A stretch of DNA of 64,000 bases from a bacterium (GTDB taxonomy: Bacteria; UBA8248): contig CBDBBI010000010.1 of NCBI GenBank assembly GCA_965202625.1, positions 544,001 to 608,000 of the forward strand, in the 5' to 3' direction. The translations under genes were made by a program, and so were the position numbers. Below are positions 28,174 to 37,712 of the stretch, piece after piece (the first letter of the stretch is position 1; each line of letters begins with the position of its first letter). The notes under the pieces are model-generated. The model made no database searches and was not told the DNA's origin. It worked only from the letters and a program-made list of their open reading frames with translations.

Positions 28174-30864
28174 ATGTCCCTTTCCAGAGGCACCCTCCAT
28201 GGGAGAAAAGAAAAAAAAACGTCAGGGGCCAAGGGCCGCGCCCCGTCCCCGGCGATGCGCCAATATCTGGAAATGAAGGCGCGCTATCCGGACGCGGTAT
28301 TGTTTTTTCAACTGGGTGATTTCTTCGAGATGTTCTATGGGGACGCAAAGATCGGGGCTGAGGCACTCAAACTTACGTTGACCTCTCGTCAGCGCGATGA
28401 GAAAGGTCCCATCCCGATGTGTGGCGTACCCTGTCATTCGGCGGCCCCTTATTGTGGGCGATTGCTGGAGGCGGGGCACAAAGTCGCCATATGCGAACAG
28501 GTCGAGGATACAGGAGAGAGCAAAAGCGTCGTGAGACGCGAGGTGACCCGCGTCCTGACTCCGGGCACCTCTATTGCCGATCTTGAATTGATGGACAGCA
28601 AGGAACCTCAGTATTTGACGGGGGTCGTCGTATCTACGGCAGGGGGACACACGCTTTGGGGAATGGCGTGGGTCGATAATTCGACCGGTGAATTTTGCGC
28701 GACCCAGGCGGCGGGCGATGCCGCCGAGGCGCTCATTTGCAACGAATTGGAGAGGCTTTCTCCCCGTGAACTAATATTGCCTAATGAATTTTCCCCCTCC
28801 GATGGGATGAAAGACAAACTAGATGCGCTCAAGATCCATGTAGAAAAAAGGCCGGCGAGTACTTTCAGCGAGCCGCTCGATCGCCAAAGCCTGGGCGCGA
28901 TTTTTCCCGACGAGACGAACGTTCGGGAGAATCCGGCGGCGGCGAACGCCGCTGTGGGGGTGATGAAATATCTCAAAGAGAATCAACCTGGGGATTTTCC
29001 CCACCTGAGGCCCGTGTCTTTCTCCCAGATTTCAGACACCATGATTCTCGACGCCGCCACGCTAAGAAATTTAGAGATCATCCACTCTGCTGCGGATCGT
29101 GGGAGAAAGGGCACCTTGATTGGCCTGCTTGATGAAACTCTCACGGGTATGGGCGGGCGATTGTTGAAAAAATGGGTACTTTCGCCCCTTATTAATGCAA
29201 ACGCCATCAGCTATCGCGCAGCCTCTATACAAGAACTCGTGGAAGGCTCCACAACCCTGGATATCCTCAAAGATGCCATCGCGCCAATACAGGACATTGA
29301 ACGTCTGCTCGGCCGCGTGGGTTCTCAAAGCGCGAACGCTAGAGACCTGGCGGGATTGGGCGCGTCCCTGGCCATGCTTCCCAAAGTCTGCACGGCCATA
29401 GAGGGGGCGGATGCGGAGTTGTTCCGCGACGTGTTGTCGAGTTGGGATTCTCTTGAGGACGTGACGCAGGAGTTGAAGAGCGCGCTTGTGGACAAGCCGC
29501 CCGTTTCGATTCGCGAGGGCGGCATTTTTCGCTCCGATTATGACCAGGAACTCGCGCAAGTGAGAAAGGCGCAGCGCGAGGGCGATACATTGTTGAAAGA
29601 TTATGAGGGCAAAGAAAAACGCAGGACAGGGCTGCCGCTGAAAATCGGGTTTAACCGCGTTTTCGGATATTATCTGGAGATCGCCAAACGATTTAGCGCT
29701 AAAGCGCCTGGGGAATATACGCGCAAGCAAACCCTCGTTTCCGCGGAGCGCTACGTCACTTCTGAGCTCAAACAGATGGAAGAAGATATTCTCGGCGCAG
29801 AGGAAAAGGGTCATCATCTCGAATTTATGCTTTTTGGTCGACTGAGAGTAAAAATATCAAAACAGGCCAAACGCATACTCGCCGCTGCAGAGAGGGTGGC
29901 GCTTCTCGACGCCGTCTTGTCCCTATCTATCGTCGCGCGCAAATATGGATACGTCAGACCGCAAATAACGGACTCTACTCATCTGGAAATCGTAGAGGGC
30001 AGACACCCCGTTATGGAGGCGGAGAATCCGGGACTCTCTTTCGTGCCGAACGATTTGGCTATCGGCGCGGATCAGCAGATACTCATCATCACGGGGCCGA
30101 ACATGGCCGGAAAATCCACGTATCTGCGCCAATCGGCACTCATCATTTTGATGTCGCAAATCGGCGGTTTCGTCCCCGCCAAAAGCGCGCAAATCGGTTT
30201 GGTAGACAGGGTATTCACTCGTGTGGGCGCGCATGACCGTCTTCTGGAGGGACAAAGCACTTTTATGGTGGAGATGGTGGAGACGGCCACCATCTTACGA
30301 GAGGCGACGCATAGAAGCTTCATTGTTTTGGACGAAGTAGGGCGCGGGACGAGCACCTATGACGGCGTGAGCATCGCGTGGTCGATCGTGGAGTATCTTC
30401 ACAATGCGGTCTCCCACAGGGCAAGAACCCTGTTTGCGACCCATTACCATGAGTTGTCCGAGCTCTCTAAGGAGTTGACGCGCGTCCATAATCTGACGGT
30501 CGAGGTTCGAGAATGGGGCGATGAAATCGTGTTTTTACGAAAAGTCGCCGAGGGCAGTTGCGATAGAAGCTACGGCATTCACGTGGGAAGATTGGCGGGG
30601 CTTCCTGATGTGGTTATTGAGCGCGCGAAAGATTTGCTCTCTCGATTTGAGGGCACAGGCGCTGAGGACCCTTCCAGCCGGCCGAAGTTATTCGTGGAGA
30701 ATCACCGGCGAAACGGGCAATTGTCTTTATTTTCGCGCAAGAGATCACAAACCGAAGAAGCGTTGGACGGCCTCAACCCGGACGCTATGACGCCTCGCCA
30801 GGCTCTTGAAGCCCTTTATGAGCTCCGGAAGATCATGGTAAATAAGGAGGAGCGGCGACTATAA
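28174..30864 (+). CDS. mutS: DNA mismatch repair protein MutS
   Basis: PAMRQY, FFQLGDFFEMF, PMCGVP, ICEQ, RVLTPGT, FNRVFGYY, GRHPV, ITGPNMAGKST, STFMVEM, DEVGRGT, FATHYHEL, SYGIHV. Confidence 0.99.
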   Translation: MSLSRGTLHGRKEKKTSGAKGRAPSPAMRQYLEMKARYPDAVLFFQLGDFFEMFYGDAKIGAEALKLTLTSRQRDEKGPIPMCGVPCHSAAPYCGRLLEAGHKVAICEQVEDTGESKSVVRREVTRVLTPGTSIADLELMDSKEPQYLTGVVVSTAGGHTLWGMAWVDNSTGEFCATQAAGDAAEALICNELERLSPRELILPNEFSPSDGMKDKLDALKIHVEKRPASTFSEPLDRQSLGAIFPDETNVRENPAAANAAVGVMKYLKENQPGDFPHLRPVSFSQISDTMILDAATLRNLEIIHSAADRGRKGTLIGLLDETLTGMGGRLLKKWVLSPLINANAISYRAASIQELVEGSTTLDILKDAIAPIQDIERLLGRVGSQSANARDLAGLGASLAMLPKVCTAIEGADAELFRDVLSSWDSLEDVTQELKSALVDKPPVSIREGGIFRSDYDQELAQVRKAQREGDTLLKDYEGKEKRRTGLPLKIGFNRVFGYYLEIAKRFSAKAPGEYTRKQTLVSAERYVTSELKQMEEDILGAEEKGHHLEFMLFGRLRVKISKQAKRILAAAERVALLDAVLSLSIVARKYGYVRPQITDSTHLEIVEGRHPVMEAENPGLSFVPNDLAIGADQQILIITGPNMAGKSTYLRQSALIILMSQIGGFVPAKSAQIGLVDRVFTRVGAHDRLLEGQSTFMVEMVETATILREATHRSFIVLDEVGRGTSTYDGVSIAWSIVEYLHNAVSHRARTLFATHYHELSELSKELTRVHNLTVEVREWGDEIVFLRKVAEGSCDRSYGIHVGRLAGLPDVVIERAKDLLSRFEGTGAEDPSSRPKLFVENHRRNGQLSLFSRKRSQTEEALDGLNPDAMTPRQALEALYELRKIMVNKEERRL

Positions 30865-30948: not shown

Positions 30949-31578
30949 GTGAAAGACCAGGGAAAATTTGTGCTATCTGACGACGGCAAGAAAGCGTTTC
31001 TTCTCAGAAGCTTTACCATCGCCACCTGCGCGTTCCTCGCGCTGTCGGCGCCGGCTCACTCCGTTGCGGACGCGCAAAGCGGCATTCACGTGAGAGACGT
31101 CGTCGTTGTAGAGAAAAATGACGAATTGCTCGTTTTTGGCTCGCTGCGGGGTGCGTTTTCGCCAAAACTCCTGGAGGCGATTCATGGCGGCGTAACAGGC
31201 AGCTTCATCTTTGACATAAGCCTCCTTCAATCTCGTAAACTTATCCACGATGTGGAAGTCTTCGCTCGGCAGCTGTCCCACCGAGTAAAGTATAGCGCGT
31301 TGAAAAAAACATATACCTTCCTCGTCAAGGAGAATGGAAAAGACCTTGAGAGAAAAGTGACCGACAGTGAGAAGGAAATGATGACCTGGATGCTTGAATT
31401 GAATGGCGTGGCGATCGCTTCTGAAAAGGCGTTATCCCCAAACGAGCAGTATTATGTCAGAATCAGAGCGCGATTGAAGCGGGTGGATTTTGTTTTTCCC
31501 TTTAATTATCTGCTCTCTTTTTTGGAAAAGAAATCCGCTTGGAACTATTCCGAGACGTTTGGCCTGAAAGGAATGTGA
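30949..31578 (+). CDS. DUF4390-family exported protein
   Basis: Signal-like segment, L.EAIHGGV...F.F.I.L, VKYSALKKTY, YYVRIRA.L, C-terminal W...F. Sits immediately before an NtrY-type kinase, the usual position for this family. Confidence 0.75.
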   Translation: MKDQGKFVLSDDGKKAFLLRSFTIATCAFLALSAPAHSVADAQSGIHVRDVVVVEKNDELLVFGSLRGAFSPKLLEAIHGGVTGSFIFDISLLQSRKLIHDVEVFARQLSHRVKYSALKKTYTFLVKENGKDLERKVTDSEKEMMTWMLELNGVAIASEKALSPNEQYYVRIRARLKRVDFVFPFNYLLSFLEKKSAWNYSETFGLKGM

Positions 31579-31581
31579 GTT

Positions 31582-33846
31582 TTGCATCTAGCGCGCCTGA
31601 GAGATGAAGAAGACGTTTCGCACCGACGAGGGAATCTTCTGCGCCTCTTCATCGCTTTGATCGCCACCGCCACCCTTTCCCTCACCTCCTGGCTCTACTT
31701 CAAAGATCTCGAGCCAGGAGTCCCTATTCTGAACAACGTCGTCGTATTCGCGCTCGTGAACTTAAGCATGACTCTACTCATGGTGGTCGTCCTCCTTGTG
31801 GCGAGGAACTTGGTGCGCCTTTATTCGGAGAGGAGAACGCGCGCCGGCGACTCACGCCTGCAATCAAAGCTCGTGTTGGCTTTCGTCGGATTCGCGCTCC
31901 TTCCGACGTTGGCTCTTTTTGTGACGGCCAGCGGCCTCATAAACCAAAGTTTCAACTCCTTGTTCAACATGAATGTGGAGAGAGCGCTCAAAAATTCGTT
32001 CGACGTAGCCCAGACGTATTATCGCGAGGTGGAAAGAAACGCCCTGTCCGACGCGAACCGACTTGCTCGTATGCTGGAGGGGACGCGCTCGGACATAATG
32101 CGAAACCCTGCAGAAATCGCAAAAATATTAGAAACGGCAAGAAAGAACGCCGGAGCGGACATCATTCAGCTCTACGACAAAGGTCGGAAGGAAATCGTCT
32201 CTGTAAAGCGGCCGAGTTTAGCACAATCTACCGGATTCTCGCCTTTGGTGGGATACGTGGATCAGGTGATTGACGGGGAGTCGCGCTCAAGCGTGGAGAA
32301 TTGGGAGAAGGGAGACGCCGTCTATGGCGTGGAACCGCTGAGGGCGCAAAAAAAAGTAGTGGGATTTGTTGTCGTAACTAAATACATGTCCGGCCAGCTC
32401 GTTGACCGGATCAGAGCCATATCAGATTCCTTTGTGGATTATAAAGAATTGGAACTGTCCAGAAACCCAATCAAGGCGAGCTATATCGTCACTTTTTTGG
32501 TGATTACTTTGCTTATCCTGTTCGCTGCTATTTGGTTAGGCTTCTACCTCGCTCGCGGCATCACGGTTCCTATCGAAAAACTAGCAGAAGCCACTCGAGC
32601 GGTCTCAGGTGGTAACCTCGAGCATCGCGTGGACGTGAAGGCAGATGGCGAGCTGGGCATCCTGATCGACGCATTCAACAGCATGACGGAAGAATTGTTG
32701 GACAACAAAAAGAGAATTGAGCAATCTTCCGAAAACCTTCGCCGCTCCAATTTAGAAATCGATAGGAGACGCAGGTACATGGAGGCGATGCTCGAAAACA
32801 TACGAACCGGCGTAATATCGACCGATCAGCGGGGGCGGGTCACCATTCTAAACAAAGCGGCCGGAGAGTTGCTGAACATCTCTCCACGGCATGCCGTCGG
32901 GCAGATATTCAGCGAAGTTTTCGAAAGCGCACATCTCGAACCCATTCGCGAGTTGATGCGCTACATGAGAGGCCGGAAAGATGAAAATGTCTCGAAAAAA
33001 ATAGAGATGATGGCAAACAGCCGCGTGCTCACCCTGCAAACGAGCCTGACCCTCCTCAAAAACGCGAAAGGTGTCAGGCTCGGTGCGGTCATCGTGTTTG
33101 ACGACATGACAGCCCTGATACGCGCACAGAAGGTCGCTACGTGGCGGGAAGTCGCCCAAGGTATTGCGCATGAGATTAAAAATCCACTGACGCCGATTCA
33201 ACTCTCTACCCAGAGAATGAGAAAGAAATTTGAAAACGAAGCGTATGATTTCGCGGACATATTTGAAACGTGCACAAACACCATCATCCATCAAGTGACA
33301 AACCTGAAAGAAATGGTGAATAAATTCAGCCGGTTTGCGCGGATGCCCGATCCGATGCTCAGCCTTTGCGAGTTTGTTCCTCTTATCGAAGAGGTGGTAA
33401 ATTTATATCGCGGCGGGCAGGGAGACATGGCATTCTCCGCTCAAATCAGTGCCGAGAATGCATTCGTCATGGCGGACCCCGAGGAATTGCAACGCGTATT
33501 CATCAATTTGCTCAAAAATGCTTTCGAATCCCAAGAGGCCGAAGGCGGGGTAAACTTACAAGCTTGGGTAGAGCAGGACGGAAACATAATAGTTGTGGAA
33601 ATCGCCGACCAAGGCAAGGGGATATCAGAAGATATGAAAAGCCATGTGTTCGCGCCCTATTTTTCCACGAAGGCCAGAGGCTCCGGTTTGGGCCTGGCCA
33701 TTTGTTATCGCACCGTGGCTGATCACAATGGAACGATAAGCGTGCGCGACAACCATCCAGCAGGTTCCGTTTTTCGTGTAACGCTCCCTCTGGCGTCCGC
33801 CGTGAACGTCACGCCTAAAAAGCAAAGGGCGACCGCCATTGGATAG
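31582..33846 (+). CDS. ntrY: NtrY-family sensor histidine kinase (TM-periplasmic-HAMP-PAS-HisKA-HATPase)
   Basis: SRLQSKLV.AF, WLGFYLARGITVPIEKL (HAMP), PAS, ATWREVAQGIAH(530)EIKNPLTPIQLS, VFINLLKNA, IADQGKGI, YFSTK.RGSGLGL. Confidence 0.93.
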   Translation: MHLARLRDEEDVSHRRGNLLRLFIALIATATLSLTSWLYFKDLEPGVPILNNVVVFALVNLSMTLLMVVVLLVARNLVRLYSERRTRAGDSRLQSKLVLAFVGFALLPTLALFVTASGLINQSFNSLFNMNVERALKNSFDVAQTYYREVERNALSDANRLARMLEGTRSDIMRNPAEIAKILETARKNAGADIIQLYDKGRKEIVSVKRPSLAQSTGFSPLVGYVDQVIDGESRSSVENWEKGDAVYGVEPLRAQKKVVGFVVVTKYMSGQLVDRIRAISDSFVDYKELELSRNPIKASYIVTFLVITLLILFAAIWLGFYLARGITVPIEKLAEATRAVSGGNLEHRVDVKADGELGILIDAFNSMTEELLDNKKRIEQSSENLRRSNLEIDRRRRYMEAMLENIRTGVISTDQRGRVTILNKAAGELLNISPRHAVGQIFSEVFESAHLEPIRELMRYMRGRKDENVSKKIEMMANSRVLTLQTSLTLLKNAKGVRLGAVIVFDDMTALIRAQKVATWREVAQGIAHEIKNPLTPIQLSTQRMRKKFENEAYDFADIFETCTNTIIHQVTNLKEMVNKFSRFARMPDPMLSLCEFVPLIEEVVNLYRGGQGDMAFSAQISAENAFVMADPEELQRVFINLLKNAFESQEAEGGVNLQAWVEQDGNIIVVEIADQGKGISEDMKSHVFAPYFSTKARGSGLGLAICYRTVADHNGTISVRDNHPAGSVFRVTLPLASAVNVTPKKQRATAIG

Positions 33847-35215
33847 GGGATATGTCCTCATCGTCGACGATGAGAGTGAAATACGCCTGAGCCTGGAGGC
33901 TGTCTTGCAGGATGAGGGCTATCGCGTAGAGAAGGCCGAGTCCGGCTCCGCCGCGCTCCAGTTGATTCAAGCAGAAGCCCCGGATGTGGTTTTGGTTGAC
34001 GTGTGGATGCCGGAGATGGACGGAATCAAAGCTCTGAAGGCGGTCAAGGGGCGCAACTCGGCTATTGAGGTCGTTGTCATGTCGGGGCACGGCAACATTG
34101 ATGCCGCCGTCGCCGCCACGAAACTAGGCGCTTTTCATTTTATTGAAAAACCCCTCTCCATCGATACGGTTTTGGGTGTTGTCGACTCCGCCGTTAAAGC
34201 GCGAAGAACAAAGGAGAGCCAGGCGGATGCTTCCCCTAACGCGAGACATAGCGACGACGCCGAAAGGACGCGAGGGGCCCGGACGGACATTTCAGATTCT
34301 GGCACAGGCGTGTCGGCTACTCACTTAAGACAAAAGATCAAAGCATATGATATAGAGGCACCGCCTGTGTCCACGAAGGTTGAGGGTGCAAATCAGCGGA
34401 GTATATCGAAGAGCGTCGTACTGCATGGCAGAGGTCTGCACTCAGGGCTGAAGACTGGATTGCTCATTGAACCCCTGCCGCCGGGGAGCGGAATACATTT
34501 TGGCAGCCTGACGAGCCCGGAGACCGTAAGAGCGAGCGTCGATTTCGTGGATGATACGAATCATGCGACAAACTTGCGCAACGGGTTGGTGGAGGCGCGC
34601 ACAATAGAGCATCTCATGAGTGCACTGCACGCATACGAGGTGAGCAACATCCTCATTAAAGTTGGCGAGGAAGTACCCGTCATGGATGGTTCGGCGGTGG
34701 AGTTTTGCCGCTTGCTCGAAGAGGCGGGTATAGAGGAGCAAGAGGAGAAACGCCAGGAATTGTGGGTGGACAAAGCCTATGAGGTGGGAGGGCCGGGGGG
34801 GGATGGGGGCTATATACGTATCGAGCCGGCGATCTCGTTTTCGATTTCCTGTCTCGTGGAATATCCCCAGCCCATTGGGAGGCAAGCCTATCTCTATGAA
34901 CACAAGAACGTGCTGGGTTTTCAGGAAAAAATTGCGCGAGCCCGCACGTTTGGCTTCGTATCTGAACTGGGTGCACTCGAAGAGATGGGCTTGGCCGAAG
35001 GTGGTCGTTGGGACAACGCGATTCTCGTGGACGAGGAGCGCATCGTGAATACGGAATTGCGATTCCCCGACGAGTTCGTCCGCCATAAAATTCTCGACGT
35101 TATGGGGGACCTTTATTTGGCCGGGTGGCCTATTCGAGGAAAAGTGACCGCCGAAAGAAGCGGGCACCGGCACAATGTCGCCTTGGTGAAAAAATTGGTG
35201 GAGGCCCAGGGCTGA
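33839..35215 (+). CDS. lpxC: Fusion of an NtrX-type receiver domain with UDP-3-O-acyl-GlcNAc deacetylase LpxC
   Basis: aa 1-120 REC: VLIVDDE, D54 in LVDVWMP, MSGHG, FIEKP. aa 186-458 LpxC: QRSI...G.GLHSG, TIEHLMSAL, EVPVMDGS, IARARTFGF, LRFPDEFVRHKILDVMGDL, SGH. Confidence 0.95.
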   Translation: MDRGYVLIVDDESEIRLSLEAVLQDEGYRVEKAESGSAALQLIQAEAPDVVLVDVWMPEMDGIKALKAVKGRNSAIEVVVMSGHGNIDAAVAATKLGAFHFIEKPLSIDTVLGVVDSAVKARRTKESQADASPNARHSDDAERTRGARTDISDSGTGVSATHLRQKIKAYDIEAPPVSTKVEGANQRSISKSVVLHGRGLHSGLKTGLLIEPLPPGSGIHFGSLTSPETVRASVDFVDDTNHATNLRNGLVEARTIEHLMSALHAYEVSNILIKVGEEVPVMDGSAVEFCRLLEEAGIEEQEEKRQELWVDKAYEVGGPGGDGGYIRIEPAISFSISCLVEYPQPIGRQAYLYEHKNVLGFQEKIARARTFGFVSELGALEEMGLAEGGRWDNAILVDEERIVNTELRFPDEFVRHKILDVMGDLYLAGWPIRGKVTAERSGHRHNVALVKKLVEAQG

Positions 35216-35257
35216 TTCTGTTTTTACGCCCGGTGATTCCGCCCGCCGCTTCATGGA

Positions 35258-36319
35258 ATGTCTCTTTTGGATGCGCATCATATTACATACAAAGGCTCGG
35301 GCGTTGACGTAAGCGCAGGAGAGAACTTCGTTCGCGCCATCGTCCAGACGGTAAAGTCCACCCATGAGAGCCAAAGCGGCCGCGTCCTGAAAGGGACGGG
35401 GGACTTTGCCGGCTTGTTCCACCTAGGCAAGGATTACGAAGACCCCGTTCTCGTTTCAGGTGCCGACGGCGTTGGGACGAAATTGCTTCTGGCCCAACGA
35501 CTCGACCGCCATGGCTCGATCGGGGTTGATTTAGTCGCCATGTGCGTCAACGACGTCCTGACCACGGGAGCGATTCCTCTTTTTTTTCTGGACTATATTG
35601 CGGCGGGCAAGATGGACCAAAGGATATTGGTCGAGGTTGTATCCGGCATCGCCCAAGGCTGTCGAGAGGCGCAGTGTGCCCTCCTCGGGGGCGAGATGGC
35701 TGAGATGCCCGATCTATATCCGCCCGGTACATATGACCTTGCGGGCTTTGCCGTAGGCGTGGTTGAGCGAAGGCGATTAGACGGCGCCGCGCCCGTGGAA
35801 GCGGGCGACGCCATCCTCGCCCTCCCTTCGTCAGGAGTCCATAGCAACGGGTATTCCTTGCTACGGAAGATATTCGATTCCAAGGGAAAACGAGAGGCTG
35901 CGACACAAAGGCTCGCCGCTCCGGTTGAAGACGCTCTCTTGGAGCCGACCCGCATTTACGTCAACGGGTCGGAGGTCATTCGAAGAGAGGAAGGGATCAG
36001 CGGAATCGCGCACATCACGGGCGGGGGGATCGCAGGAAACGTGAGCCGCATGATGCGAGATGGTCTGCAAGCGAGGCTTTATCCGGAAAAATGGCCCATG
36101 CCGGAGATATTCTCACTGATTCAGGAGTTCGGCCCACTCGAGGCGGCGGAGATGTATCGCACTTTCAACATGGGGCTGGGTTTCGTTTTTCTCGTAAAGG
36201 CGGAACGGGCCGAACCTTTGCTCGAGCGTCTCAGAAACACGGGCGAAGAGGCCATGGTGGTCGGAGAGGTAGTCAAAAGACCGAAAGGCGGCCAAGCCGT
36301 CGTCGTCAAGGGTAGATGA
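35258..36319 (+). CDS. purM: Phosphoribosylformylglycinamidine cyclo-ligase
   Basis: TYKGSGVD, LVSGADGVGTKL, DLVAMCVND, PLFFLDY, GGEMAEMP, YDLAGF, SSGVHSNGYSL, HITGGG, FNMGLG. Confidence 0.98.
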   Translation: MSLLDAHHITYKGSGVDVSAGENFVRAIVQTVKSTHESQSGRVLKGTGDFAGLFHLGKDYEDPVLVSGADGVGTKLLLAQRLDRHGSIGVDLVAMCVNDVLTTGAIPLFFLDYIAAGKMDQRILVEVVSGIAQGCREAQCALLGGEMAEMPDLYPPGTYDLAGFAVGVVERRRLDGAAPVEAGDAILALPSSGVHSNGYSLLRKIFDSKGKREAATQRLAAPVEDALLEPTRIYVNGSEVIRREEGISGIAHITGGGIAGNVSRMMRDGLQARLYPEKWPMPEIFSLIQEFGPLEAAEMYRTFNMGLGFVFLVKAERAEPLLERLRNTGEEAMVVGEVVKRPKGGQAVVVKGR

Positions 36320-36972
36320 ACATGTCTCTAAAAACGCGATTGCGCGTGGGCGTTTTGGCTTCCGGACGGGGGTCGAATCTACAATCTCTCATCAAGGCGT
36401 GTCGGGATGCGGATTTTCCGGCAAGAGTCGCTTTAGTGTTGAGCGACAAGAAAAAGGCGCACGCGCTTAGGCGTGCGGCGGACGCGGGGATACAGAATCA
36501 ACTCATGGAGCCGAAGGAGGATAATTTTTATCCGAGAATCGGCGATGAAATGGAGCGTTGCGGAATCGATCTCATCTGTTGCGCTGGCTTCATGCGAATT
36601 TTGCCTCCGGCGTTCGTGGAACGTTTTGCGGGAAAAATCATCAACATTCATCCCTCGCTTCTACCGAGCTTCCCTGGCCTTCGCGCGCAAAAACAAGCTC
36701 TGGACGCTGGTGTTAGAGTATCTGGCTGCACGGTCCACTTTGTGGATGAGGGAGTGGATACGGGACCGATTGTTTTGCAGGCTGCCGTGCCGGTGTATCC
36801 CCAAGATGACGAGAAAACCTTGTCAGAGAGAATTCTCGCCTATGAACACCGCGCGTATCCATTGGCTGTGCGACTCATCGCCGAGGGATGCGCTCAATAC
36901 GCAAGGGGCGCACTTGTGGATGAGGGCGGTTTCATCTCGCCCGTCTCCGAATCATCACCCACAAAAGGATAA
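36316..36972 (+). CDS. purN: Phosphoribosylglycinamide formyltransferase
   Basis: VLASGRGSNLQ, AGFMRIL, INIHPSLLPSFPG, GCTVHFVDEGVDTGPI, EH. Confidence 0.98.
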   Translation: MNMSLKTRLRVGVLASGRGSNLQSLIKACRDADFPARVALVLSDKKKAHALRRAADAGIQNQLMEPKEDNFYPRIGDEMERCGIDLICCAGFMRILPPAFVERFAGKIINIHPSLLPSFPGLRAQKQALDAGVRVSGCTVHFVDEGVDTGPIVLQAAVPVYPQDDEKTLSERILAYEHRAYPLAVRLIAEGCAQYARGALVDEGGFISPVSESSPTKG

Positions 36973-36980
36973 ATAACGCT

Positions 36981-37712
36981 TTGCGAAGACGGTTTTTTTT
37001 GACGCTCGTATTTGGTTTTTCATTTCTGGCGCTTTCCAAAATGTTCTTCCTCTCCGCGCCGGCGGCCGAAGAGTCATCGCGCCTGAGTGAAGAGCGAATC
37101 ATCGGGGCGCTCCAGAAAAAATATGAGGCGCTCGCGTCTTTGCGAGCCTCCTTTGAACAAGAAAACGAATTCAAGTCCCTTGGACAAACGACACGCTCTA
37201 GCGGGCAGCTTCTGTTGAGCAAGCCGAGCAAGCTGCGTGTGGAGTATACCAGTCCCGACAAGCAGATTCTGGTCTCTGACGGCATTACGCTTTGGCTCTA
37301 CACAGCTCGTTTCAATCAAGTGGTGGTCTCGAAGATTGAGCGCATTGGGCTTGGGGCCACTCCTTTACTATTCTTGGCGGGAAGGGGGAATTTGAGGAAA
37401 AATTTTAATATCCTCGTCGAAGAAGTCGGAGTCGCCAAGCGAAGCGAAGGAATTTGGAGGGCGGGGCAACCGCATCGCATTCGCTTGGAGCCCAAATTTC
37501 CGGGTGCTTCGTTTCGACGGATGTGGATGGAGGTAGAGCCCGAGAGTTTCCGAATTCTCGCTTTGGCGTATGTCGATGCCCTCGGCAACAAGAGCCGCCT
37601 GCGGTTTTCAAACGTGAAAGAAGATATCAGCGTAACTGGAGGGGAATTTAGTTTTGTCGCGCCGCCTCAGGTCGAAGTTCTTCATATGCCGCTCCGAGAG
37701 GAGCACCAGTAA
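36981..37712 (+). CDS. lolA: Outer-membrane lipoprotein carrier LolA family
   Basis: Signal peptide, LRASFEQ, SGQL...KP.KLR.EY..P..Q.LVSDG.TLWLY, TPLLFL, DALGN....F.N, F.F..P. Confidence 0.88.
   Translation: MRRRFFLTLVFGFSFLALSKMFFLSAPAAEESSRLSEERIIGALQKKYEALASLRASFEQENEFKSLGQTTRSSGQLLLSKPSKLRVEYTSPDKQILVSDGITLWLYTARFNQVVVSKIERIGLGATPLLFLAGRGNLRKNFNILVEEVGVAKRSEGIWRAGQPHRIRLEPKFPGASFRRMWMEVEPESFRILALAYVDALGNKSRLRFSNVKEDISVTGGEFSFVAPPQVEVLHMPLREEHQ

Follow-up and report, generated by a model that had tools for sequence, protein, structure and literature searches.

LpxC catalyzes the committed, flux-controlling step of lipid A synthesis, and as an essential enzyme it is an antibiotic target. 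The roles of its zinc-ligand and catalytic residues are known from work on Escherichia coli and Aquifex aeolicus; in E. coli its C-terminal tail carries the FtsH degron. Binding of MurA is a further mode of LpxC control. Two signaling proteins are also relevant here: NtrX, a sigma54-independent response regulator, and CheB, in which phosphorylation of a receiver domain gates methylesterase catalysis. We analyzed a 64,000-nt stretch of a bacterial genome assembly (GCA_965202625.1, contig CBDBBI010000010.1, positions 544,001 to 608,000 of the forward strand; GTDB lineage Bacteria; UBA8248), hereafter the window, in which an NtrX-like receiver (REC) and LpxC form a single protein, encoded directly downstream of genes for a DUF4390 protein and an NtrY-type sensor kinase.

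The published work closest to this arrangement places two-component control of lpxC at the level of transcripts. Loss of ntrYX raises lpxC mRNA 8.8-fold in Rhodobacter sphaeroides (PMC7240162), and NtrYX lowers lpxC transcripts and lipopolysaccharide (LPS) in both R. sphaeroides and Caulobacter crescentus. The single mapped target of DVU2934, an NtrC-family regulator of Desulfovibrio vulgaris, is lpxC, which in Syntrophobacter fumaroxidans adjoins an operon that the authors regard as orthologous to that of DVU2934 (PMC3333781). PlrP, a DUF4390 protein, is proposed to act in the periplasm as the third member of such a system and to hold back the phosphatase activity of PlrS, a kinase of the NtrY family (PMC13001219). 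The portion of a 2025 review of lipid A regulation consulted here lists proteolysis (FtsH/LapB/YejM, Lon), partner binding and transcription as modes of LpxC control, with no fused receiver among them and 0 occurrences each of 'fused' and 'response regulator' (PMC12444477). In line with the first-pass annotation of the window, whose author knew of no experimental description, our searches of the literature outside subscription journals found no account of a receiver-LpxC or NtrX-LpxC fusion, nor any occurrence of the term 'REC-LpxC'.

Our central observation is that the only LpxC of the window's genome is the C-terminal part of a 458-aa protein that begins with a complete receiver domain, and that this protein belongs to a large family of fusions in which the receiver is consistently retained. 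The locus comprises the following features.

30949..31578, + strand: DUF4390 (PlrP-like) gene, 209 aa (open reading frame (ORF) list; Pfam PF14334)
31582..33846, + strand: NtrY-type sensor histidine kinase gene, 754 aa (Pfam)
33169..33171, + strand: codon of kinase H530, the phospho-histidine of the H-box (HEIKNP) (residue check)
33839..35215, + strand: REC::LpxC fusion ORF, 458 aa, TTG start (ORF list, Pfam, NCBIfam)
33839..34198, + strand: receiver domain, residues 1-120 (Pfam, AlphaFold2 (AF2) model, matches to solved structures)
33998..34000, + strand: codon (GAC) of D54, the predicted phospho-acceptor (residue check)
34226..34258, + strand: zone holding the junction of a deletion of about 237 aa, residues 130-140 (alignments with genus-mates)
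34259..34357, + strand: decayed Fis-type helix-turn-helix (HTH) remnant, residues 141-173 (aligns to the HTH of 710-aa forms)
34367..34369, + strand: in-frame GTG (V177) preceded by GAGG at 8 nt, a candidate internal start that is not conserved (start-codon scan)
34394..35215, + strand: LpxC domain, residues 186-458, its catalytic and zinc residues complete (Pfam, TIGR00325)

The ORF list agrees with the layout that the first-pass annotation had read from the letters, namely a DUF4390-ntrY pair followed by a 458-aa frame that has no internal stop and overlaps the end of ntrY by 8 nt; a 3-nt gap separates the DUF4390 gene from ntrY. The TTG start lies at the equivalent aligned position in 39 of 41 genomes of the phylum. 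In the 209-aa protein, PF14334 matched at 6.1e-25 (88 bits, cut-off 27), and an N-terminal hydrophobic stretch resembles, as judged by eye, a putative signal peptide. The kinase carries NtrY_N, HAMP, PAS, HisKA and HATPase_c domains, all above their Pfam cut-offs, and so has the domain set that defines NtrY.

Within the fused protein, Response_reg (PF00072) matched residues 6-112 at 6.6e-30 (104 bits, cut-off 30.2). The positions that form the acidic pocket of a receiver (D10, D11), its phospho-acceptor aspartate (D54) and its conserved Ser/Thr and Lys (S82, K104) are all occupied, as are E257, H258, H416, D420 and H443 in the LpxC part; these assignments, together with H530 of the kinase, had been made from the translations in the first pass, and every one proved correct. 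The AF2 model shows the expected (beta-alpha)5 fold, in which strands at 5-9, 29-33, 50-54, 77-82 and 100-103 alternate with five helices, at a predicted local distance difference test score (pLDDT) above 89 in most blocks, the last helix, alpha5, being long (residues 108-130). The closest solved structures were the receivers of NtrC, NtrC4 and Brucella NtrX, and NtrX was the top response-regulator family in NCBIfam for the REC part (model positions 4-131); its score of 121.7 bits lies below the NtrX (NF051870) cut-off of 600, so the fused protein is not an NtrX member. LpxC (PF03331) matched residues 186-454 at 3.9e-81, and the TIGR00325 lpxC equivalog scored 236.5 bits (cut-off 187.25) over model positions 2-274 of 297, so that the tail with which the family model ends at its C-terminus is missing from the domain here. 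Matches to LpxC chains in the PDB reached 8e-45, and the AF2 model gave a confident LpxC from residue 185. Over the whole protein the model had a pLDDT of 88, with disorder at residues 135-157 and 175-179 of the linker and a single helix at 160-169 amid low pLDDT.

Set beside the described systems, the locus shares with NtrY/NtrX of alpha- and betaproteobacteria, including Bordetella PlrSR-PlrP, a kinase with the full NtrY domain set, whose gene is immediately preceded by one for a DUF4390/PlrP-like protein, an order also known from beta- and gammaproteobacteria (PMC13001219); it differs in the covalent attachment of the regulator to LpxC and in the regulator's lack, in this genome, of AAA+ and of a functional HTH. 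With LpxC of E. coli, Pseudomonas aeruginosa and A. aeolicus it has in common the equivalog score, the catalytic and zinc residues and a lipid A pathway context, whereas the N-terminal receiver and linker and the missing tail set it apart. CheB, our working model, likewise ties a receiver to a hydrolase through a flexible linker, but its catalytic domain has no relation to LpxC, the linker here, at 35-65 aa, is far longer, and an inhibitory interface here is hypothetical. The DVU2934 module resembles the locus as a two-component regulator devoted to lpxC, although the D. vulgaris control is transcriptional and exerted on a separate gene; in two Syntrophobacter-labeled loci (L046, L057) the fusion stands next to NtrY. 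Another natural LpxC fusion, LpxC-FabZ (NCBIfam NF009667; 204.8 bits for the LpxC part here, cut-off 465), joins a metabolic enzyme at the C-terminus, whereas the partner here is a signaling domain at the N-terminus. Enzyme-output response regulators and post-translational control of LpxC are each already known.

The window's genome is 3.09 Mb in size and 99.7% complete. Whether the fused gene is its only lpxC had been posed as a check in the first pass; a profile search returned one LpxC match in the whole genome, the fused protein, and found LpxB, LpxD and LpxK elsewhere, so that a full lipid A (Raetz) pathway relies on the fused protein. The junction was the other point that had been singled out for verification, and here the support comes from assembled contigs rather than raw reads: contigs of two runs, probably from the source organism, span 33600-35400 with 0 differences, and two contigs of an independent study (33634-34189 and 34161-34376) cover REC, the whole linker and the deletion junction with 1 difference, so the fusion is not specific to this assembly. 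The best other match to the NtrX model was a 460-aa NtrC-family regulator (G000 C10:2602817-2604163) at 393.5 bits, below the cut-off of 600, which leaves no second bona fide NtrX in the genome. A search for the LapB zinc-ribbon (PF18073) gave no match in the genome; this absence is weak evidence, because the model matched 10 of 14 control genomes, Gram-positives among them.

The descent of the protein emerges from its relatives. The nearest ones in the database, at 63-78% identity and with the source labels Nitrospinae, Nitrospinota and Tectomicrobia, are 700-711 aa long, and in them REC is followed by an AAA+ domain of the sigma54 type with an AAA lid, in many cases by HTH_8, and finally by LpxC; proteins of 424-458 aa with REC and LpxC only made up 32 among the 120 matches listed. 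Aligned with the 710-aa form, the window's protein lacks one block of about 237 residues, comprising the whole AAA+ domain and lid, and alignment with genus-mates shows a second loss of 13 residues within the Fis-type HTH. The view that AAA+ and HTH are absent therefore holds in so far as neither Sigma54_activat nor HTH_8 has a Pfam match in the 458-aa protein, but a decayed HTH persists at residues 141-173. The alignments identify the fused protein as an in-frame AAA+-deletion derivative of an NtrX::LpxC fusion of about 710 aa, with a decayed HTH, and not, in this lineage, as a primary 'REC + LpxC' design.

The phylum of the window's genome shows how widespread the parent form is. LpxC was present in 50 of 51 genomes, the only double matches being fragments produced by contig ends or a break. 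In 34 genomes LpxC sits inside an open frame of 712-755 aa; the others comprise 1 long form cut by a contig end, 9 short forms (frames of 432-538 aa) and 6 partial ones. Among the 22 genus-mates we found 20 full-length long forms, 1 broken long frame and 1 fragment, so that the window's genome holds the only short form in the 23 genomes of its genus. Because 20 of 22 genus-mates are full-length and long and the HTH remnant is kept, the polarity of the deletion is clear within the genus, and the comparison indicates that the deletion is recent and the genome caught just after losing its transcription-factor parts. On a tree of REC plus LpxC, short forms require at least four state changes among 41 phylum genomes; their places on it are the window's genome, g8, g6 (next to the long g7) and g9 (next to the long g3). 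This and the other tree described below are 'quick' IQ-TREE searches supported only by the Shimodaira-Hasegawa-like approximate likelihood-ratio test (SH-aLRT).

In the long forms themselves the AAA+ region (around residues 130-395 in the protein P0002, for instance) has a degenerate look. The GAFTGA loop and the Walker B motif are informative on AAA+ function, and a GAFTGA-like loop was found in 0 of 115 long forms (loci and database proteins, with duplicates between the two kept in), in which the Walker B 'DE' is mostly 'DG'. In this respect the long relatives resemble sigma54-independent NtrX, and the AAA+ module was probably ATPase-dead and sigma54-independent already before its loss.

Linkage to the kinase had been proposed as a further check and proved to hold within the phylum: in 42 of the 50 LpxC-bearing genomes NtrY_N is encoded upstream, sharing contig and strand with lpxC, whereas it is on another contig in 6 (fragmented assemblies) and nowhere in 2 (a fragment and a contig end), and DUF4390 lies upstream in 38 of 50, though not in g12, g13 or g15. 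Elsewhere the linkage is much looser. To survey other groups, we scanned one genome per species and kept the best 80 loci, omitting one cut by a contig end (L016) and duplicates (L029, L043, L044) from some of the counts. Of these 80 loci, 48 were fused (38 short, 10 long), 31 were unfused or ambiguous and 1 had no LpxC part. In 39 of the fused loci the sequence extends 2.5 kb or more upstream, and only 12 of these 39 have an NtrY-like kinase directly before the fusion; Pfam confirmed the adjacent NtrY for L045, L051 and L062, the last also with DUF4390, and in one 'orphan' long form NtrY is 128 kb distant. The source labels of fused loci include Deltaproteobacteria/Thermodesulfobacteriota (Syntrophobacter, Syntrophorhabdus, Desulfopila sp. 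IMCC35006), Binatia, Thermoanaerobaculia, Holophagae, Aminicenantes, Thermodesulfovibrionia/Nitrospirota and Myxococcota. In the ESM Atlas, 17 clusters of at least 50 members, among the top 30 matches, had REC and LpxC on 100% of members. The guess that similar fusions already sit in databases is thus borne out by a large, conserved family inside and outside the phylum.

In a tree of LpxC domains, a branch with SH-aLRT 99 separates 28 unfused rows from 64 fused and 3 ambiguous ones. This topology is consistent with a single origin of the fusion, provisionally, because the 28 unfused rows are a narrow sample picked by a pattern scan. Under unordered parsimony rooted on the unfused rows, a short root needs 8 changes and a long root 10, and a loss-only history 11 losses; the comparisons make the polarity of long and short forms clear only within the window's genus, not at deep nodes.

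Several loci deserve individual mention. Of five other genomes tested, 3 had a fused LpxC only and 2 an additional unfused one; in the latter, Desulfopila (G051 C22:125342-126157) and a Nitrospirota metagenome-assembled genome (G055 C8:110046-110852), the unfused LpxC scored 322-354 bits and a divergent REC-LpxC paralogue 246-252, and the fused copy, in a divergent basal clade, may have a different role. Fused REC-LpxC contigs also bore the labels Promethearchaeota archaeon (L075), Patescibacteria group (L088) and Enterobacteriaceae (L066); their LpxC domains group with Thermodesulfobacteriota, Acidobacteriota and Delta/Binatia rows respectively, and the contigs are probably mis-binned. In L076 and L091 a REC match lies just 5′ of LpxC but does not share one open frame with it, with LpxC domains inside the fused clade, which may reflect frameshifts, sequencing errors or secondary splits.

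Conservation extends to both halves of the fusion. Across 88 fused proteins D54 and K104 were each kept in 88 and S/T82 in 87, and the LpxC positions E257, H258, H416, K417, D420, D424 and H443 in 87-88; over all LpxC catalytic residues compared the range was 82-88. Against genus-mates, the nonsynonymous-to-synonymous ratio (omega) of REC was 0.11-0.16, a rough value, as are all omega values here, because synonymous divergence (dS) is near saturation, most pairs having values of around 1 or above. Nonsynonymous divergence (dN) of ntrY was 0.146-0.218 against genus-mates, in the same range as the 0.134-0.208 between long-form genomes; the DUF4390 gene, too, evolved equally fast in both comparisons, and LpxC dN was alike in the window's lineage and between long forms. 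The linker, with dN of 0.49-0.64, is fast-evolving. These rates indicate that REC, ntrY and the DUF4390 gene are kept under purifying selection and that the signaling parts are maintained.

The reading that we favor is direct phospho-control, modeled on CheB, to which we assign a probability of roughly 0.45. The locus would constitute an envelope-signaling module with three parts: the DUF4390 protein, which resembles PlrP, the NtrY kinase, and a regulator whose only surviving output is the sole LpxC. Phosphate would pass from H530 of NtrY to D54 of REC, with the DUF4390 protein tuning the kinase/phosphatase balance; phosphorylation would shift the dimer or conformation by way of the alpha4-beta5-alpha5 face and the extended helix alpha5, and this change would alter LpxC catalysis directly, much as the CheB receiver gates its tethered hydrolase, so that lipid A flux would be set without transcription. 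Since NtrYX lowers lpxC expression in alphaproteobacteria, our guess is that phosphorylation lowers LpxC output. What suggests such coupling is the retention of REC wherever AAA+ and HTH are absent, in short forms of several lineages, along with the intact architecture and residues, the sole copy, the TTG start overlapping the ntrY stop, the strongly supported branch between fused and unfused domains and the missing C-terminal LpxC tail. The conserved D54 and K104, the low REC omega, the unchanged rates of ntrY and DUF4390, the presence of the other lipid A enzymes, the clear polarity of the deletion within the genus and the published links of NtrYX, DVU2934 and PlrP count on the same side.

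Several observations weigh against direct phospho-control. REC dN on the window's lineage is 0.13-0.155 compared with 0.04-0.09 between long forms, a two- to threefold rise that fits signs of partial relaxation or re-tuning after the loss of AAA+ and HTH, and the omega values that argue for constraint are rough. The deletion, seen in 1 of 23 genus genomes, could be a young, unpurged state. The 65-aa linker is poorly conserved and predicted by AF2 to be disordered, and with a predicted template modeling score (pTM) of only 0.68 the model gives no fixed contact between REC and LpxC; a complex prediction for the two domains gave no answer (score 0.00) and counts on neither side. Beyond the phylum, an adjacent NtrY is missing from 27 of the 39 fused loci that are informative, and since most phylum fusions keep the HTH, the family's primary logic may be transcriptional.

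These points leave room for readings in which the receiver matters in another way or not at all. REC phosphorylation could set the amount or location of LpxC, through proteolysis or membrane recruitment, rather than its catalysis, and in doing so replace the FtsH/LapB route of E. coli. Proteolysis is the best-known control of LpxC (PMC12444477), and the missing tail, a long disordered linker suited to access by a protease or adaptor, and the lack of a LapB zinc-ribbon match, unspecific as that control was, all fit; the degron or adaptor would, however, be hypothetical, and we regard this version as unlikely. Quite unlikely, in our judgement, is an arrangement with no direct coupling, in which the fusion is a 'Rosetta stone' of a transcriptional NtrX-lpxC link, LpxC a constitutive passenger and the regulator half a relic or phosphate sink. 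Most phylum members do keep AAA+ and HTH, NtrYX and DVU2934 act on lpxC transcripts in other bacteria according to the sources introduced above, and the raised REC dN and a deletion unique in the genus point the same way. Yet REC omega is still low and all its signaling residues are intact, ntrY and DUF4390 show no relaxation, short-form lineages that are old and spread over several phyla keep a phospho-competent REC, and a relic would be expected to vanish as cleanly as the AAA+ domain did.

A third possibility, already raised in the first pass, is that LpxC is made also or mainly as a separate protein of about 282 aa from the GTG at 34367, leaving REC small and stand-alone or near-inert. The GAGG before that codon favors it, as does the 453-aa short fusion L007 (G040), in which an ATG at residue 179 with a Shine-Dalgarno (SD)-like 4-mer stands exactly at the LpxC start (MLQKTIGR), so that free LpxC might be co-produced in that lineage. 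Against this, an in-frame start with an SD-like 4-mer within 30 codons before LpxC occurs in only 6 of 41 phylum genes, at differing positions, and in 0 of 20 other genus-mates; a start-like codon in such a span is expected by chance, and the frame is open and conserved family-wide, all of which makes a separately started LpxC very unlikely. An assembly or frameshift artefact joining two genes has next to no likelihood left: no point was found in its favor, the contigs described above span the gene and its junction, 48 of the best 80 loci from named genomes hold homologous fusions, as do 50 of 51 phylum genomes, and as far as contigs allow the artefact is refuted.

Direct phospho-control, extended to the family, yields a broader proposition that we place at about even odds: in whole phyla the LPS-committing enzyme would itself be a response regulator, phosphorylated by a periplasm-sensing NtrY/PlrP module to set flux post-translationally in place of FtsH/LapB, with the AAA+ and DNA-binding parts of an ancestral NtrX::LpxC protein repeatedly trimmed down to a bare switch of REC and enzyme, and the window's genome the youngest case. 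If the receiver on the sole LpxC does act as a switch, it would be a new mode of LpxC control and would give the pleiotropic NtrYX/PlrP system a concrete envelope target, consistent with alphaproteobacterial lpxC genetics. The fusion bears on how LpxC is regulated outside Enterobacteria, and the natural deletion series from REC-AAA+-HTH-LpxC through REC-remnant-LpxC to REC-LpxC could show the switch of a transcription factor into an enzyme.

As for the surroundings of the locus, scanning between the genes gave 0 promoter-like sites and, on the + strand, no terminator, a result that carries no weight, and metatranscriptome contigs covered only 33673-33845, 33897-34081 and 35047-35269, pieces too short to speak to a single transcript or to expression. 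A full-length mutS (domains I-V, 28174-30864) lies on the same strand directly 5′ of the DUF4390 gene. On the 3′ side of the fused gene, the window holds purM, purN and a LolA-family gene (35258-37712), and the distant 'orphan' long-form loci L078 (8188-10865) and L094 (7136-9796) have purN, lolA and rseP, encoding an M50 protease, 3′ of the fusion. Downstream synteny with an envelope lipoprotein carrier thus outlasts the upstream linkage to the kinase.

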